Source: Escherichia phage JK1. From it: a stretch of 64,000 nucleotides of DNA. Positions 11,751 to 59,667 of the stretch are shown here, in pieces. The translations under genes were made by a program, and so were the position numbers. The stretch lies in sequence record MZ436830.1. One strand, 5' to 3'. Position 1 is the first letter of the stretch. The number at the start of each line of letters is the position of its first letter. The notes under the pieces are model-generated. The model was not told where the DNA came from. It saw only the letters and a list, made by a program, of their open reading frames with translations, and made no database searches.

Positions 11751-12353
11751 TTATAGATTAAATCCTTCAAAGTCAAGAGTATAGATAGTGTATGTTGAAT
11801 ACTTTTTATACTCGTATCTATCCGCAATTCTAAATACACTTCCAGCTGGTATCATTACTTCTTGTTCATCTGAAACTAATTCCATATTACGATAGCGATG
11901 GCTATCTGGAAACTTAAAACTTGGGCTATATTCTTTACAACGTAAAGCTTTTATAGCATACTCCTGGAAATTAAACACCATAGGAGCTTTGAATTCAAAA
12001 ATAACTTGTGTGTTGTATTCTAATCCAGAAGCAAAATGTAGAGCTATATTTTTATCATATGAAGCTGATACTACTTTATCAAATGTAATAATATCAATTC
12101 CTTGATTTAACACCTGTTTAGTCTCAACTGGAACACCTCTCCAAAGAGGTTTATCGTTTGGAACCAAACGAGATTTGATTATTTCATTTAACCAAGAATG
12201 ATCGTCTGGCTTATTAGTAATACAATGAATTAAAAGTTCAATTTCGGATAAATTAAATCCTTCAGAAAGTAATTCTTCACGAATAGAAGCACGCACCGAT
12301 GCATCCATTGATTTTATTTTAAAATCTTTTAGTTGCATTACTGAGTATTTCAT
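11751..12353 (-). CDS. modA: ADP-ribosyltransferase ModA
   Basis: 200 aa; R (LWRG), S-x-S (VVSASY) and E-x-E (EQEVMIP) ART motifs. Confidence 0.8.
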   Translation of the reverse strand: MKYSVMQLKDFKIKSMDASVRASIREELLSEGFNLSEIELLIHCITNKPDDHSWLNEIIKSRLVPNDKPLWRGVPVETKQVLNQGIDIITFDKVVSASYDKNIALHFASGLEYNTQVIFEFKAPMVFNFQEYAIKALRCKEYSPSFKFPDSHRYRNMELVSDEQEVMIPAGSVFRIADRYEYKKYSTYTIYTLDFEGFNL

Positions 12354-12985
12354 TCAACTACCTCAATATCATACACTTTAAATGTTCCAAACGAATCGTG
12401 TAATTTTTCTTTTGAAATAGAAGTTATTTTATACTTTCCAATTGGAATCATCCATTCTTGTTCACGTACAATCATCATTAAGTTATCAGTACGTTCTGAA
12501 TCTAATCCATCAGTATCTTCATATGTATACTTAAACTCAGTATTAGGAGAAGAAAGTATAATATCGCTGATATGGTCAGAATAATTAAAAGCTTTATCAG
12601 TTTTTAAGCGAAGTATTGTGTCAGTGAAATATTCGGCATAAGAAAAAGAACATGCTGTATGCAAACTAGTAGTAAATGAATCTACTCTGTTCGTTGAAAA
12701 CACTTCTCCGACTTGTAAATCTTTAATGAGTTCTTTTGTCGATTTTGATATACCACGATATAGCTGATAAGGCGATTTAGTTAAATGCTTTTTAACGATT
12801 TTATTCAACTGCTGATGAAGAGCTTCATTCTTTTTGGCTTCCATACATTGCCAAAGAATTGATTGTTCAAAGTCAGTAAATTTTTCACAGACCTTTTTAT
12901 ACATATCATATTGAAAATCGACACTTTCAGCTTTTATAGATAACTGTTCAACATCTGCAAGATTAATAATCATGATAGCCTCCAT
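12350..12985 (-). CDS. modB: ADP-ribosyltransferase ModB
   Basis: 211 aa; YRG, STN and EQEWMIP ART motifs. Confidence 0.8.
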   Translation of the reverse strand: MEAIMIINLADVEQLSIKAESVDFQYDMYKKVCEKFTDFEQSILWQCMEAKKNEALHQQLNKIVKKHLTKSPYQLYRGISKSTKELIKDLQVGEVFSTNRVDSFTTSLHTACSFSYAEYFTDTILRLKTDKAFNYSDHISDIILSSPNTEFKYTYEDTDGLDSERTDNLMMIVREQEWMIPIGKYKITSISKEKLHDSFGTFKVYDIEVVE

Positions 12986-17797: not shown

Positions 17798-17842
17798 ATT
17801 AACCTCTATTCATAAAAGCATTAAAAATTTGGTCATCAATAG
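17795..17842 (-). repeat. 48-bp direct repeat spanning a gene junction (copy 1)
   Basis: 45/48 identical to 18153-18200. Confidence 0.6.
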
Positions 17843-18155
17843 ATGGCGCAGTAATATTTTCTGCATCATTTAGCAAATCATTAATTTCATCAGATAGCAT
17901 AACACATGTACCTTTATTTCCTGTAATTGTTACTGCACAATTACGAACGTTTTCTTTATCAAATTTTAGGTTAATATTTTCGTAGTGAAAATCCTTTAAT
18001 GCCGAATATATCTTTAAAATGAAATTGTCTTTTACTACAATAAACCCAACCTCACTATTAAAACGCGGTTCATGGAAACTGTAATAAACCTTTTCATCTA
18101 TAAAATCGTATGAAATTTTTTCCATTTTTAAATATGAAAATTCAGAACTATACAT
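17799..18155 (-). CDS. hypothetical protein (C-terminal IDDQIFNAFMNRG tail)
   Basis: 118-aa ORF. Confidence 0.5.
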   Translation of the reverse strand: MYSSEFSYLKMEKISYDFIDEKVYYSFHEPRFNSEVGFIVVKDNFILKIYSALKDFHYENINLKFDKENVRNCAVTITGNKGTCVMLSDEINDLLNDAENITAPSIDDQIFNAFMNRG

Positions 18156-18200
18156 ATTAACCTTTATTCATAAAAGCATTAAAAATTTGATCGTCAATAG
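18153..18200 (-). repeat. 48-bp direct repeat spanning a gene junction (copy 2)
   Basis: 45/48 identical to 17795-17842. Confidence 0.6.
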
Positions 18201-18789
18201 AAACTTTTACTTTAGGCTGTTCTTCAAACGGTAATTCATATCCACATATTACAATTTTGTGATCGATACCAAAATACACAGAAGCAATATTATTAATATT
18301 ATTTTCAGTGAAATCTAAATCAACATCAATATCTTTTTGACTAACGCTCAAAGGATAATTAATACGAATAATTCGATTATCTTTAACAAAGATTCCACCG
18401 ACATACTCTGTGCTGCGTTTAAAGTTTACACGTTTCCTAAATGAAAAATATTCAGGTTCTTTATGGGCTCGACTCATAGGGCTTAAAGTGTATTCCGAAT
18501 ATGAAATATCAAATCCTACACCTTCAATATGAGCCAAAGTATCATGATTAAACCAATTATAATCGTATGCCAAATCCATTAAATTGTAATATGTGAAAGG
18601 CACCGGATTAACATCATATGTTGTACCTTTAAAATCTGCCCAGGCAACGATTTCGTTATCTTTAACAATTACAAAAATTGTGCCAATAAGATATCCACGG
18701 TTATTTTCATCAGGTGTTATATTATAACATTGTGCATCAGGAAATTTACCGTATTTAAACGGTGGATTTTTGTGCATATAATAAATCAT
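18157..18789 (-). CDS. hypothetical protein (C-terminal IDDQIFNAFMNKG tail)
   Basis: 210-aa ORF. Confidence 0.5.
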   Translation of the reverse strand: MIYYMHKNPPFKYGKFPDAQCYNITPDENNRGYLIGTIFVIVKDNEIVAWADFKGTTYDVNPVPFTYYNLMDLAYDYNWFNHDTLAHIEGVGFDISYSEYTLSPMSRAHKEPEYFSFRKRVNFKRSTEYVGGIFVKDNRIIRINYPLSVSQKDIDVDLDFTENNINNIASVYFGIDHKIVICGYELPFEEQPKVKVSIDDQIFNAFMNKG

Positions 18790-56512: not shown

Positions 56513-57094
56513 CTAACCGAGCTTTTTAGTTAATTCATTCCAATGTTTTCTACACAAAGAAACATAAATTTCATCACCAATACAGATTTGATTACCTTCT
56601 TTAACTGGTGTTCCATCTTCCATTAATCGAGCTGTCATAATCGCTTTTTTACCACAATGACAAACTGCTTTTAGTTCAATAAGTTTATCTGCAATCGCTA
56701 AAAGTTCTTTAGAACCTTCAAACAATTTTCCAGCGAAATCAGTCCTTAATCCATAAGCCATAACAGGAACATTATATGTATCAACAATTCGGCTCAATTG
56801 ATGCACTTGTTCAGTTTTTAAAAACTGAGCTTCATCTACAAATACGCAATGAATATCTTTTTGTGCTTCAGCCCATTTATAGAACTCGAAAATATCCATA
56901 TCATCTGTAATAATATTCGCTTCCTGTTTAATTCCAATGCGAGAAACAACTTCACAGACAGAATCGCGAGTATCAATAGCAGGCTTAAGAACTAATACAC
57001 TCATTCCACGTTCTTTATAATTATGTGCAGCAGTCAAAAGAGAAGCAGATTTTCCAGCATTCATTGCTGCATAAGTAAAAATTAAACTCGCCAT
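56513..57094 (-). CDS. tk: thymidine kinase
   Basis: 193 aa; Walker A AMNAGKS, C-terminal zinc cluster CHCG...C. Confidence 0.85.
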   Translation of the reverse strand: MASLIFTYAAMNAGKSASLLTAAHNYKERGMSVLVLKPAIDTRDSVCEVVSRIGIKQEANIITDDMDIFEFYKWAEAQKDIHCVFVDEAQFLKTEQVHQLSRIVDTYNVPVMAYGLRTDFAGKLFEGSKELLAIADKLIELKAVCHCGKKAIMTARLMEDGTPVKEGNQICIGDEIYVSLCRKHWNELTKKLG

Positions 57095-57103
57095 ATCACC
57101 TTC

Positions 57104-57289
57104 TTAAAGCGTATTCACATAAGCTATTAATTCATTTTCTTTCTTATCAAACAGATCAGCAAATTCTTCCTGCTGTTCAGGAGATAGCGGGCCGTATTCA
57201 TCATAAAAGGTGTTTGCTTCTGTATGCTCATCTAGAAGTTCATGGATAAGCTCAAACAATTTATCTTTTTGTTCTTTACTCAGACTCAT
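57104..57289 (-). CDS. small acidic hypothetical protein
   Basis: 61-aa ORF. Confidence 0.4.
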   Translation of the reverse strand: MSLSKEQKDKLFELIHELLDEHTEANTFYDEYGPLSPEQQEEFADLFDKKENELIAYVNTL

Positions 57290-57455
57290 ATATTAATTTC
57301 CAGGAGTTTTAAGATAATTCGCTTTTGCTTAAATATTTCCATCGTTAAATGATCAATATCTTTTTGACCAATTCCAATAGCAAAACCCTTATTTACGGCA
57401 AGTTCAATTAAATTATCAATATTGCGTAAAACTTCATAACGTAACTCAAAATTAT

Positions 57456-57683
57456 TCATTTTGGTTCACCTTCTTTAACGAAATCAGGATAAGGATAAAA
57501 TCCTGAATAAAATCCTTCACCTTTATGATTGATGCATCCTTTATTAGAACAATAGCACCAATAATCGAAATCACAAGCCATTTCATCGTTGCATAAAGCA
57601 AAAACAACCGGCCACTTACACTTTTCACAGTGGGCATTTTTAAGAATACTAGTTTGGCTCATAACCATGTAACCTTTAAGCAA
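57456..57683 (-). CDS. Cys-rich small protein (putative zinc-binding)
   Basis: 75 aa with about 10 Cys. Confidence 0.45.
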   Translation of the reverse strand: MLKGYMVMSQTSILKNAHCEKCKWPVVFALCNDEMACDFDYWCYCSNKGCINHKGEGFYSGFYPYPDFVKEGEPK

Positions 57684-57871
57684 TATTCTTCTACATGTTG
57701 TTTACGACCTTTCTTATCAATAAAGGTATATTCAACGAATGTTCCAATGTAGTCTTTATCTACATCATGTGGACTATTAATTGGACATTTAGTACGGCAA
57801 ATGCGTTCCCATTGACGAATAATTACTGCTTTGTTTTTAGGATCAAACGGATGTGGGTAATGCACTTTCAT
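57659..57871 (-). CDS. small hypothetical protein
   Basis: 70-aa ORF. Confidence 0.45.
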   Translation of the reverse strand: MKVHYPHPFDPKNKAVIIRQWERICRTKCPINSPHDVDKDYIGTFVEYTFIDKKGRKQHVEEYCLKVTWL

Positions 57872-58322
57872 AATCCACCACTATTAAATCAATATCAGGA
57901 GTAAACATGTCGATTAATTTAGAAACCTTATCCCAATCGCCGCCAGCAATACCACAACCTATGCGTGGAATGTAAATTACCGGTTTAAACAAAAGGGTTT
58001 CTGCCTGTAGATTTAATTCTATCATGCAGTTTACTAAAGCACCATAATCAAGATTAGGACCTGGTTCGTATTGCGTATACAGGTTATAGCATATACCAAA
58101 TCCCGTAGGACTATGTTTAAAAACAATAGACATATCGCCTAATTTATCACGAGAACCGTACTCAGTAGTGGTTTTATCTATTTCTAAAATTTTGGGATAG
58201 GCTCTGGCTAATTGACCCGCTACACCTGAACCCATAGTATGAAAACAATTGCACCCGTGCGCAATAATATTACCTTGAAGAAATAGGGCGACAATATCGC
58301 CCTTGATATATTTTACAATCAT
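57843..58322 (-). CDS. macro-domain protein (ADP-ribose binding/processing fold)
   Basis: 159 aa; GDIV...IIAHGCNCFHTMGSGVAGQ and IPRIGCGIAGG resemble macro-domain signatures. Confidence 0.5.
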   Translation of the reverse strand: MIVKYIKGDIVALFLQGNIIAHGCNCFHTMGSGVAGQLARAYPKILEIDKTTTEYGSRDKLGDMSIVFKHSPTGFGICYNLYTQYEPGPNLDYGALVNCMIELNLQAETLLFKPVIYIPRIGCGIAGGDWDKVSKLIDMFTPDIDLIVVDYESALPTSV

Positions 58323-58660
58323 CTAGTACTCAATCCTCGATTATAAGAATCTACCAAACGGTCAACCATTGAATGACAAGCGGCTTTATCTTTCTCCTCC
58401 GCAACTGAACATTCTAAGGTATTCCACTTTTTAGCATATCGTTTTAACAATGTATCATTTTTGTATCTGCTTGATTTATCTCTTTCTCCGTCTTTATATG
58501 CATATATTAATTTCTGCGCAAATTCAGCTTGGCATGCTTTATTTTTCCCGCAATAATCCGCTGCAGTACGGTTTACATACTCTCTAATTTCAGTATATGA
58601 TGTATCTGCTAACGCAGAAAATGAAATTAATCCTATACATAAAACCAAAATTTTAGTCAT
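58319..58660 (-). CDS. secreted protein
   Basis: 113 aa with signal peptide ...SALA. Confidence 0.5.
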   Translation of the reverse strand: MTKILVLCIGLISFSALADTSYTEIREYVNRTAADYCGKNKACQAEFAQKLIYAYKDGERDKSSRYKNDTLLKRYAKKWNTLECSVAEEKDKAACHSMVDRLVDSYNRGLSTR

Positions 58661-59198
58661 TTACTATTTCCAAAAGTTTATTATTTTTAAGGTAATTAGC
58701 CTTTTCTAGGACTTCAGAAGCATATTTAGAACCTGCTTTAACATTCCATCCCGAATTATAAGAGGATATTGCTTTTCTTATATCGCCCTTATGTATATTT
58801 AACCAATAAGAAAGTTCAATGTACGCCCAGGAAGCTGAATTGGACCGTTTATTCAACATTCTTTTTATTTCAGCATCGGTCATATTATAACCAAGTTCCT
58901 TAACTCTTGCTCGCATAGTAGGCAAATAATTTTGGAACATTCCATAAGCGTGATGCTTTGGTTTAGATTTTAAATTAACTCCGCCAGAGCTTTCTTGCCA
59001 TAAAATAGCAGCCATTATATGACCTAATCCGCTCTTGTGGATATTTTTGTGTGTTTTATATTTTCCATCCTTAGAAAATTGTTCCCCGAATTGATACGCG
59101 TAACGCATGTTATCGAGTTGGACATTACTGAAAGTATGCTCGGAGCTATGTGCCATCATTGAAATGGCCAATAGACCAGCGAGTAGTGCTTTTCTCAT
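58653..59198 (-). CDS. secreted lytic-transglycosylase-like protein (vs.1 position)
   Basis: signal peptide; AILWQESSGG catalytic-Glu-type motif. Confidence 0.5.
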   Translation of the reverse strand: MRKALLAGLLAISMMAHSSEHTFSNVQLDNMRYAYQFGEQFSKDGKYKTHKNIHKSGLGHIMAAILWQESSGGVNLKSKPKHHAYGMFQNYLPTMRARVKELGYNMTDAEIKRMLNKRSNSASWAYIELSYWLNIHKGDIRKAISSYNSGWNVKAGSKYASEVLEKANYLKNNKLLEIVND

Positions 59199-59205
59199 GC
59201 TTACC

Positions 59206-59667
59206 TCATTGAGTTTTAATTACTGCTTTAGAAGCCTTTCCTGGTAAACGACGACTGTTGATAATTGCCATCCTGCATTGAAGTGACGGGTTTTTGAACT
59301 TCTCATTAGGCTTACAAACCGTAAATCCAAGCCAAAGATTTCCATCTGTGATTTCTAAACGTCCAGGACGATATTCAACCCCATCAATAAAATCCTCGTC
59401 AATGTCAGGACGCGGAGGCATACTCAGGAATTCATTAACTTCTAAAACATGGTCTTTTATTTTATGGAATAATTCAAAAACATATGTCTCATCAATCTCC
59501 CGTTGAATTGCACGATCAAGAAGATGTTGAGAATATTTTAGATGAAACGATGAGACTCCTGCTGCTTTTGATGCCTCACGAATCTCATTGTTAATTTGAC
59601 GAAACTCCGACTCAAAGTGACGACGAAGCTTATTTCGACGGATAAAAACTTCTGTATTGATAGTCAT
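59206..59667 (-). CDS. regB: RegB site-specific endoribonuclease
   Basis: 153 aa, early promoter upstream. Confidence 0.8.
   Translation of the reverse strand: MTINTEVFIRRNKLRRHFESEFRQINNEIREASKAAGVSSFHLKYSQHLLDRAIQREIDETYVFELFHKIKDHVLEVNEFLSMPPRPDIDEDFIDGVEYRPGRLEITDGNLWLGFTVCKPNEKFKNPSLQCRMAIINSRRLPGKASKAVIKTQ

Follow-up and report, generated by a model that had tools for sequence, protein, structure and literature searches.

The tk.4 macrodomain of a T4-like phage: a probable eraser of DarT2-made DNA ADP-ribosylation, found as two discrete alleles

What is a macrodomain doing in the genome of a T4-like phage? The question is raised by an open reading frame of 159 aa on the minus strand, at 57843..58322 of a 64,000-nucleotide stretch of Escherichia phage JK1 (record MZ436830.1), which is referred to here as the window. 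The original prediction recognized macrodomain signatures in this ORF, and the motifs that it quoted, GDIVALF...IIAHGCNCFHTMGSGVAGQ and IPRIGCGIAGG, are indeed present in the translation. The ORF is a genuine gene, since it scores above threshold against the Pfam Macro family (PF01661; 32 bits vs. a cutoff of 22, E = 1.3e-7, profile positions 2–117 of 118), has relatives in 2789 phage records from many unrelated phage groups, and shows a low dN/dS among four phages that carry the same allele class (0.02–0.09), as expected under strong purifying selection. Structure prediction, proposed as a check of the fold, recovered a macrodomain: the AlphaFold2 model, built on 58 homologues, has a pLDDT of 93.9 and a pTM of 0.89 and consists of a mixed beta-sheet with helices. 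Sequence, predicted fold and the loops for ADP-ribose binding described below thus all bear out the macrodomain call.

The gene is in fact already known. The window is a segment of a Tequatrovirus genome; its bases 57000–59300 have matches in 747 phage records and share 99.4% identity with Escherichia phages slur02 and slur04. Set beside the annotated records of T4 and T2, the 159-aa ORF proves to be tk.4 and the 70-aa ORF that follows it tk.3, and the placement of tk.4 between vs and tk.3 is common to JK1, T4 and T2. The JK1 protein aligns with T4 Tk.4 (NP_049723) over its full length at 58% identity (E = 1e-70). Given the Tequatrovirus origin of the window and the location between vs and tk.3, the JK1 gene is orthologous to T4 tk.4. 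The T4 and RefSeq entries label this gene "phosphatase; A1pp phosphatase motif", and the A1pp/macro motif was reportedly annotated already in the 2003 review of the T4 genome. A role for T4 tk.4, now also called adfM, against the DarTG2 defense system was reported in 2025.

In JK1, tk.4 belongs to a minus-strand array that runs from regB (59206–59667) through vs.1 (58653–59198, with an SLT domain), vs (58319–58660), tk.4 itself, tk.3 (57659..57871; Pfam DUF7202, E = 8e-39; 96% identical to T4 Tk.3), a Cys-rich ORF (57456..57662) and two further ORFs of 57 and 61 aa to tk (56513–57094). In the annotated records, the Cys-rich and 57-aa ORFs are present in T2 and not in T4; by comparison with the same T4 and T2 records, tk.1 is missing from JK1. 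Most successive genes are joined by ATGA overlaps, for example at the tk.3/Cys-rich junction and at vs/tk.4, where the tk.4 start codon overlaps the vs stop codon; tk.3 overlaps both tk.4 (by 29 nt) and the Cys-rich ORF. A scan for promoters and terminators found promoter-like sites no more numerous than in shuffled sequence, with none directly upstream of tk.4 and the sole convincing one preceding regB. With these overlaps, and with tk.4 having no promoter-like site of its own, the genes from regB to tk look co-transcribed.

Which kind of macrodomain does tk.4 encode? A Foldseek search with the model returned 155 PDB macrodomain chains at E ≤ 1e-3, with TARG1 (E = 5e-10), Poa1p (3e-9), BT1257, Thermus and Mycobacterium DarG and a Thermosipho DarTG fusion as top matches. 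The family profile gave a similar order, with E-values of 9.5e-20 for BT1257, 4.7e-18 for TARG1, 8.9e-16 for SCO6735, 7e-14 for Poa1p, and 7e-12 and 7e-10 for DarG, whereas viral Mac1-type and MacroD-type domains reached only about 2e-3. By sequence and by fold, Tk.4 therefore belongs to the ALC1-like class (TARG1/DarG/SCO6735/Poa1p) rather than with MacroD or viral Mac1. The sole PADLOC match is the macro region of DarG, and the best NCBIfam match is likewise DarG (NF048014), limited to the N-terminal macro part (model positions 2–138 of 338). However, at 27.6 bits this match falls far short of the equivalog cutoff (250 bits) and does not make Tk.4 a DarG antitoxin. Tk.4 is without the C-terminal, DarT-binding half of DarG (159 aa vs. 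about 330–340), and no darT adjoins it in JK1, where its neighbors are vs and tk.3.

What would the phage gain from such a protein? In a transposon-sequencing study of T4 (HIDEN-SEQ), tk.4 was the single significant hit, depleted on a DarTG2-expressing host, and a clean tk.4 deletion rendered T4 sensitive to DarTG2, for which the gene was named adfM; this evidence, from a preprint, is genetic, together with structural similarity to M. tuberculosis DarG (bioRxiv 10.1101/2025.11.20.689424). The literature searched contained no enzymology for any T-even Tk.4. The PhiKZ protein of the same name (gp104, AdfM) removes thymidine-ADP-ribose in vitro and protects chimalliviruses from DarTG2 (PMC13309987). 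Since deletion of tk.4 sensitizes T4 to DarTG2, the removal of ADP-ribose from DNA is the likeliest function. We consider it probable that JK1 Tk.4 strips DarT2-installed ADP-ribose from the thymidines of phage DNA by a water-mediated Gln/Asn scheme like that of SCO6735. In this reading, the fold, the orthology with T4 tk.4 and the residue pattern come from the present analysis, the phenotype of T4 and the chemistry of SCO6735 come from published work, and we infer the same activity for the JK1 protein by analogy with its 58%-identical T4 orthologue. In an infected host that carries DarTG2, DarT2 would ADP-ribosylate thymidines in single-stranded phage DNA and thereby block replication. Tk.4, made from the regB–vs.1–vs–tk.4–tk.3–…–tk array as a free-standing macrodomain ADP-ribosyl glycohydrolase, would hold the ADP-ribose between two glycine-rich loops (residues 22–35 and 119–130) and hydrolyze the thymidine–ribose bond, giving back normal DNA.

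Of the two roles suggested in the original prediction, the removal of host-imposed ADP-ribose marks agrees with the DarTG2 sensitivity of the T4 knockout, with the amendment that the mark in question sits on a thymidine of the phage DNA and not on protein. The other, a regulation of phage ADP-ribosylation, fares poorly; taken broadly, Tk.4 would undo or modulate the ADP-ribosylation or RNAylation that Alt, ModA and ModB carry out on proteins, and we regard this as very improbable. Alt, ModA and ModB modify arginine, and the resulting N-glycosidic linkage is reversed by enzymes of the ARH/DraG type; macrodomains of the TARG1 class are not known to cleave it. It is this arginine linkage that disfavors the idea. 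There is also no genomic linkage, as the genes lie about 45 kb apart, the relatives of Tk.4 are spread over 2789 records from many unrelated phage groups, and loss of the gene in T4 has a DarTG2-specific phenotype. On the other hand, ModA (11754–12353) and ModB (12353–12973) are encoded in the same window, as had been stated, and SCO6735 and TARG1 do show some protein de-ADP-ribosylation as well (PMC9411070).

How might the thymidine–ribose bond be cleaved? Loop 1 (residues 22–35, HGCNCFHTMGSGVA; 58218..58259, minus strand) holds Asn25 (codon 58248–58250) and a GxG motif, and loop 2 (residues 119–130, PRIGCGIAGGDW; 57933..57968, minus strand) is the phosphate-binding loop. Among the 58 homologues these loops are conserved as HGCNC..MGSGVA and PRIGCGIAGGDW, and fifteen positions are invariant, including H22, G23, N25, C26, G33, N80, Y82, Q84 and, in loop 2, P119, G122, G124 and W130; A35 is likewise invariant. 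Loop 2 is almost identical to PRIGCGLAGGTW of SCO6735, and PRIGCGLAGGxW is common to SCO6735 and BT1257. The HMMER profile and MAFFT, as independent methods, both align Gln84 (codon 58071..58073, minus strand) with TARG1 Lys84 and SCO6735 Gln85, the latter being the Gln of the motif NMIGQHG that BT1257 and SCO6735 share; Asn25 aligns with SCO6735 Asn27, DarG Asn22 and N23 of PhiKZ AdfM. DarG Lys80 corresponds to Gln84, too. For DarG the residue equivalences come indirectly, from the TARG1, SCO6735 and PhiKZ alignments and a published structural alignment, because a tblastn search of plasmids with the macro protein yielded free-standing macro genes and SLOG fusions but no DarG sequence.

The catalytic lysine of the DarG/TARG1 type is thus replaced by Gln84 in Tk.4, and TARG1 Asp125 by Ala126, while Gln84 and Asn25 match the catalytic center of SCO6735 (Gln85 and Asn27). 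In SCO6735, Gln85 is structurally equivalent to DarG Lys80 and TARG1 Lys84 and is locked in position by Asn27. With Q85A, DNA that carries DarT-made thymidine-ADP-ribose is no longer hydrolyzed; for Q85A and N27S together, the loss of this activity is described as complete or nearly so, and SCO6735 itself rescues DarT toxicity. The same study argues that thymidine de-ADP-ribosylation unifies the macrodomain class to which SCO6735 belongs (PMC9411070). Catalysis by Tk.4 would most likely follow this scheme rather than that of DarG: lacking the catalytic lysine, it would use Gln84, kept in place by Asn25, to orient the distal ribose so that water can attack it.

Does Tk.4 need catalysis at all? 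It could counter DarT2 mainly by binding and blocking the toxin, or be a mere reader of ADP-ribose. In vitro, DarT is inhibited even by catalytically inactive forms of SCO6735, DarG and TARG1, most strongly by that of SCO6735 (PMC9411070), and the Tk.4 alleles described below differ mostly outside the ligand loops (residues 44–79 and 131–155), which would fit co-evolution with a binding partner. However, the residues that are catalytic in SCO6735 (Asn, Gln and GxG) are invariant in the 58 homologues and kept in 74 of the best 80 bacterial relatives, an invariance not expected of a pure binder, and the domain with which DarG binds DarT is missing from Tk.4. We therefore give a predominantly non-catalytic role very little credence.

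Some observations do speak against DNA de-ADP-ribosylation by JK1 Tk.4. The JK1 protein differs at 42% of its residues from the T4 protein that was tested. Lys34 and Lys89, which position the DNA in SCO6735, are replaced by Ser32 and Gly88, and Tk.4 does not have the extended "mobile loop" seen in SCO6735 and BT1257; in the profile alignment, six residues of BT1257 face a gap. Other members of the class have different substrates (ADP-ribose-1''-phosphate for Poa1p, Glu-ADP-ribose for TARG1), and in Vibrio phage JSF10 a relative of 38% identity lies between NAD-salvage-like genes, one Prs-like and one for a nicotinamide phosphoribosyltransferase. (JSF10 is a T5-like phage and is not ICP1. AdfB of ICP1 was considered as a relative of Tk.4 and rejected, as it is a 77-aa mimic of the DarG C-terminus with no macrodomain.)

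The JSF10 neighborhood would suit a protein that processes a small ADP-ribose derivative, such as ADP-ribose-1''-phosphate, O-acetyl-ADP-ribose or the ADP-ribose-based signals of immune systems, or that frees ADP-ribose for the reconstitution of NAD+. So would the "A1pp phosphatase motif" annotation in T4 and RefSeq, the place of Poa1p among the best sequence and fold matches (Poa1p His23 and Ser30 are aligned to His22 and Thr29 of Tk.4), and a comparative study proposing that phage macrodomains mostly act on soluble ADP-ribose derivatives (PMC9503650). However, the phenotype of T4 tk.4 is specific to DarTG2, and the Gln/Asn pair in the active site is that of the DNA-acting SCO6735. A source of ADP-ribose-1''-phosphate is also not known in T4-infected E. 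coli, which counts against that substrate, and activities of this kind could coexist with DNA de-ADP-ribosylation and need not replace it. A small derivative as the main substrate is thus decidedly unlikely, and the thymidine-linked mark on phage DNA remains the preferred target.

The difference between the JK1 and T4 proteins has a peculiar distribution. The DNA identity to T4 is 92–100% in tk.3, vs, vs.1 and regB, and the first 125 nt of tk.4 are 87% identical, but sliding identity drops to 40–73% per 60-nt block in an island at 57838..58257 that is flanked on both sides by sequence of 92–100% identity. The encoded protein is 58% identical to the T2 copy as well as to that of T4. At the protein level, identity between the alleles is 84% over residues 1–43, 44% over residues 44–79 and 24% over residues 131–155, with the catalytic and ligand-loop residues all kept in both. 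Between the alleles dN is 0.37 and dS is 1.2–2.1, a saturated value that makes the between-allele dN/dS uninformative. The pattern speaks for an old divergence that recombination has introduced, and against rapid local evolution.

There are two discrete tk.4 alleles at similar frequency in Tequatrovirus genomes that are otherwise nearly identical. About 290 phage records, a Gaprivervirus among them, contain the variable core of the JK1 (window) type at ≥90% identity, and about 223 contain that of the T4 type; within Tequatrovirus, few records are intermediate between the classes. Why should two versions persist? The alleles could differ in the DarT2 variants or the sequence contexts that they handle, or in a toxin-binding surface. 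That they form a balanced polymorphism, each specialized for different ADP-ribosylating defenses of the hosts, is a tentative idea that we think unlikely to hold; if it did, the window-type allele would have a protection spectrum different from that of T4 AdfM. The window-type allele is the commoner one in sequenced Tequatroviruses, and the T4 type is the one that was tested experimentally. For phage therapy and host-range work on T4-like phages, it would be useful to know whether both alleles neutralize the same DarTG2 systems.

Where did the T-even gene come from? Relatives of Tk.4 at 33–44% identity occur at 387 bacterial loci, mainly in Rhodobacteraceae, Verrucomicrobia, Desulfobacterales and Hyphomicrobiaceae, and 74 of the best 80 of these 387 have the motif N-x-h-[TGS]-Q. 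A Pfam scan of 133 ORFs flanking the bacterial homologues found heterogeneous housekeeping genes; the DarT family was absent from the families matched by at least two of these ORFs, neighbors having been chosen crudely. A descent of T-even AdfM from free-standing, Gln-type macrodomains like SCO6735, and not from a DarG antitoxin, is suggested by these data, and suggested only.

The original prediction also placed a Cys-rich, probably zinc-binding ORF of 75 aa next to the macrodomain gene. The two are not adjacent, since tk.3, which had been overlooked, lies between them. The Cys-rich ORF itself is real, but its length of 75 aa (57456–57683) requires a TTG start at 57683, whereas the GenBank annotations start at an internal ATG, so that the protein has 68 aa in slur02 and 70 in T2. 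The protein is probably 68 aa long, starting from the ATG at 57662 that overlaps the tk.3 stop codon as ATGA. Zinc binding remains probable: the ORF matches Pfam PF23895, "phage zinc binding domain" (E = 2.6e-29, 101.5 bits vs. a cutoff of 27), as well as PHROG 2306. Five residues (C12, C15, C38, C43 and H46 in the 68-aa numbering) are invariant in the copies from Tequatrovirus, Moonvirus, Krischvirus, Slopekvirus and Pseudotevenvirus, and C24, C30 and C36 vary across the same genera. With four Cys and one His invariant and the three other Cys not, the pattern would fit one conserved zinc site. Copies of the ORF occur in 777 phage records and almost without exception lie between tk and vs in Straboviridae. 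Its AlphaFold2 model, made from about five or six close sequences, has a pLDDT of 41, too low to be used, and a PDB sequence search retrieved no solved relative, the best match being the ZZ zinc finger of p62 at a non-significant E of 0.21; the same search with tk.3 gave no match. Judging from its sequence, the product is probably a separate, small, zinc-binding protein. It is not an obligate partner of the macrodomain, because T4 is without it and yet has a functional AdfM.

The present analysis adds to the known gene the assignment of a Gln-type active site, the sharply bounded two-allele polymorphism and a corrected gene map. How does JK1 Tk.4 compare with the characterized members of its class? 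Its nearest counterpart is T4 Tk.4/AdfM (anti-DarT factor macrodomain), which occupies the same locus, has the same N25/Q84 pair and loop motifs, and is identical over the first 14 residues. The T4 protein has 155 aa compared with 159 in JK1, where the C-terminus is four residues longer and the overlap with tk.3 is 29 nt, compared with 4 nt in T4; the sequence of loop 2 is GCGIAGGDW in JK1 and GAGIGKGNW in T4, and the differing 42% of residues are concentrated in positions 44–79 and 131–155. Yeast Poa1p, which acts on ADP-ribose-1''-phosphate, has the N-terminal HxCNC...G.G motif in common with Tk.4. TARG1/OARD1, which acts on Glu-ADP-ribose, has a Lys84/Asp125 dyad where Tk.4 has Gln84/Ala126.

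The free-standing ALC1-like proteins SCO6735 of Streptomyces coelicolor (PDB 5E3B) and BT1257 of Bacteroides (2FG1/2AFC) are the best or near-best PDB sequence matches. Like Tk.4, they are single-domain proteins that are not encoded beside darT, and they share with it the Gln in place of the catalytic Lys, the locking Asn and the sequence PRIGCGxAGGxW; SCO6735 is a thymidine-ADP-ribose DNA hydrolase. Unlike Tk.4, to which they are 26–29% identical, they have a mobile loop that is longer by five or six residues, together with, in SCO6735, Lys34 and Lys89, and they are bacterial housekeeping or stress proteins, not agents of phage counter-defense. DarG (Thermus, 5M31/5M3E; M. tuberculosis, 5M3I) is of the same class and presumably has the same substrate, with a fold TM-score of about 0.72–0.77 and 17–23% identity in structural alignments, but it has Lys80 where Tk.4 has Gln84, binds DarT through an additional C-terminal domain and has darT as a neighboring gene.

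PhiKZ gp104 (AdfM of Chimallivirus), finally, shares with Tk.4 its name and its role as a single phage macrodomain directed against DarTG2, and is imported into the phage nucleus (PMC13309987). It is only about 21% identical to Tk.4, with a marginal BLASTP E-value of 0.001, and is of the Lys type (N23/K78), its PTK being aligned to YTQ of Tk.4. From the low identity and the Lys-for-Gln difference, the two appear to be separate lineages of one macrodomain class, which suggests that they were acquired independently, and they probably use different chemistry. The Gln-type, SCO6735-like site of the T-even proteins would predict a catalytic mechanism different from that of PhiKZ AdfM.

The original prediction placed the Cys-rich ORF next to the macrodomain gene tk.4. 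In the JK1 window the two do not adjoin, because tk.3 lies between them, but the arrangement does occur in another genus: Escherichia virus TH44 (Gaprivervirus, MT446415.1), whose macro allele is of the window type (core DNA identity 93%), has a homologue of the Cys-rich ORF directly after the macro gene, without an intervening tk.3. The small-gene content of the tk to tk.4 interval (window 57104-57683) is mosaic when compared with T4 and T2. The window phage has a tk.2-like ORF (61 aa, DUF7438), a 57-aa ORF and the Cys-rich ORF in this interval and lacks tk.1; T4 has only tk.1, tk.2 and tk.3; and T2 has the complete set. The Cys-rich protein itself (57456-57662, minus strand) can be aligned by its CxxC and downstream Cys/His residues with the p62/sequestosome-1 ZZ-type zinc finger, but at E 0.21 this likeness is sub-threshold and non-significant.

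Inside tk.4, the terminator scan returned, on both strands, a GC-rich hairpin of 8 perfectly paired bp, AGGGCGAtatTCGCCCT, with a T-rich tract after it (58285-58303). The hairpin is within the coding sequence, about 20 nt past the start codon, and falls in the portion of the gene that is conserved across both alleles.

Divergence from T4 also affects a further anti-DarT locus of the window phage. At 18160-18789 on the minus strand, it encodes a homologue of gp61.2 (AdfA, the anti-DarT1 factor) that is just 73% identical to the T4 protein, whereas the srd, modA, modB and dmd genes beside it are 97-100% identical to their T4 counterparts. Immediately downstream, on the same strand, is a second, weaker paralogue-like match (17802-18095, 35%).

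The bacterial relatives of Tk.4 (387 loci) belong mainly to marine and environmental lineages, namely Ruegeria and other Rhodobacteraceae, Verrucomicrobia, Desulfobacterales and Hyphomicrobiaceae, and enterobacteria are not represented among the best 80. A few of the genes neighboring these relatives encode TIR, NUDIX or AbiEii-like AAA domains.

The macro position of Citrobacter phage CF1 (Moonvirus; 462-1143 of the locus) is taken up by a pair of short ORFs, for a 136-aa hypothetical protein and a 92-aa "phosphatase", which may represent a split or frameshifted macrodomain gene. Vibrio phage JSF10 (KY883654.1; 598-3453 of the locus) encodes a Tk.4-like macrodomain, 38% identical, that is Gln-type and has a long mobile loop. 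On one side of it is a gene for a Prs-like "ribose-phosphate pyrophosphokinase" and on the other one for a "nicotinamide phosphoribosyltransferase", a pair reminiscent of the phage NAD+ reconstitution pathway.
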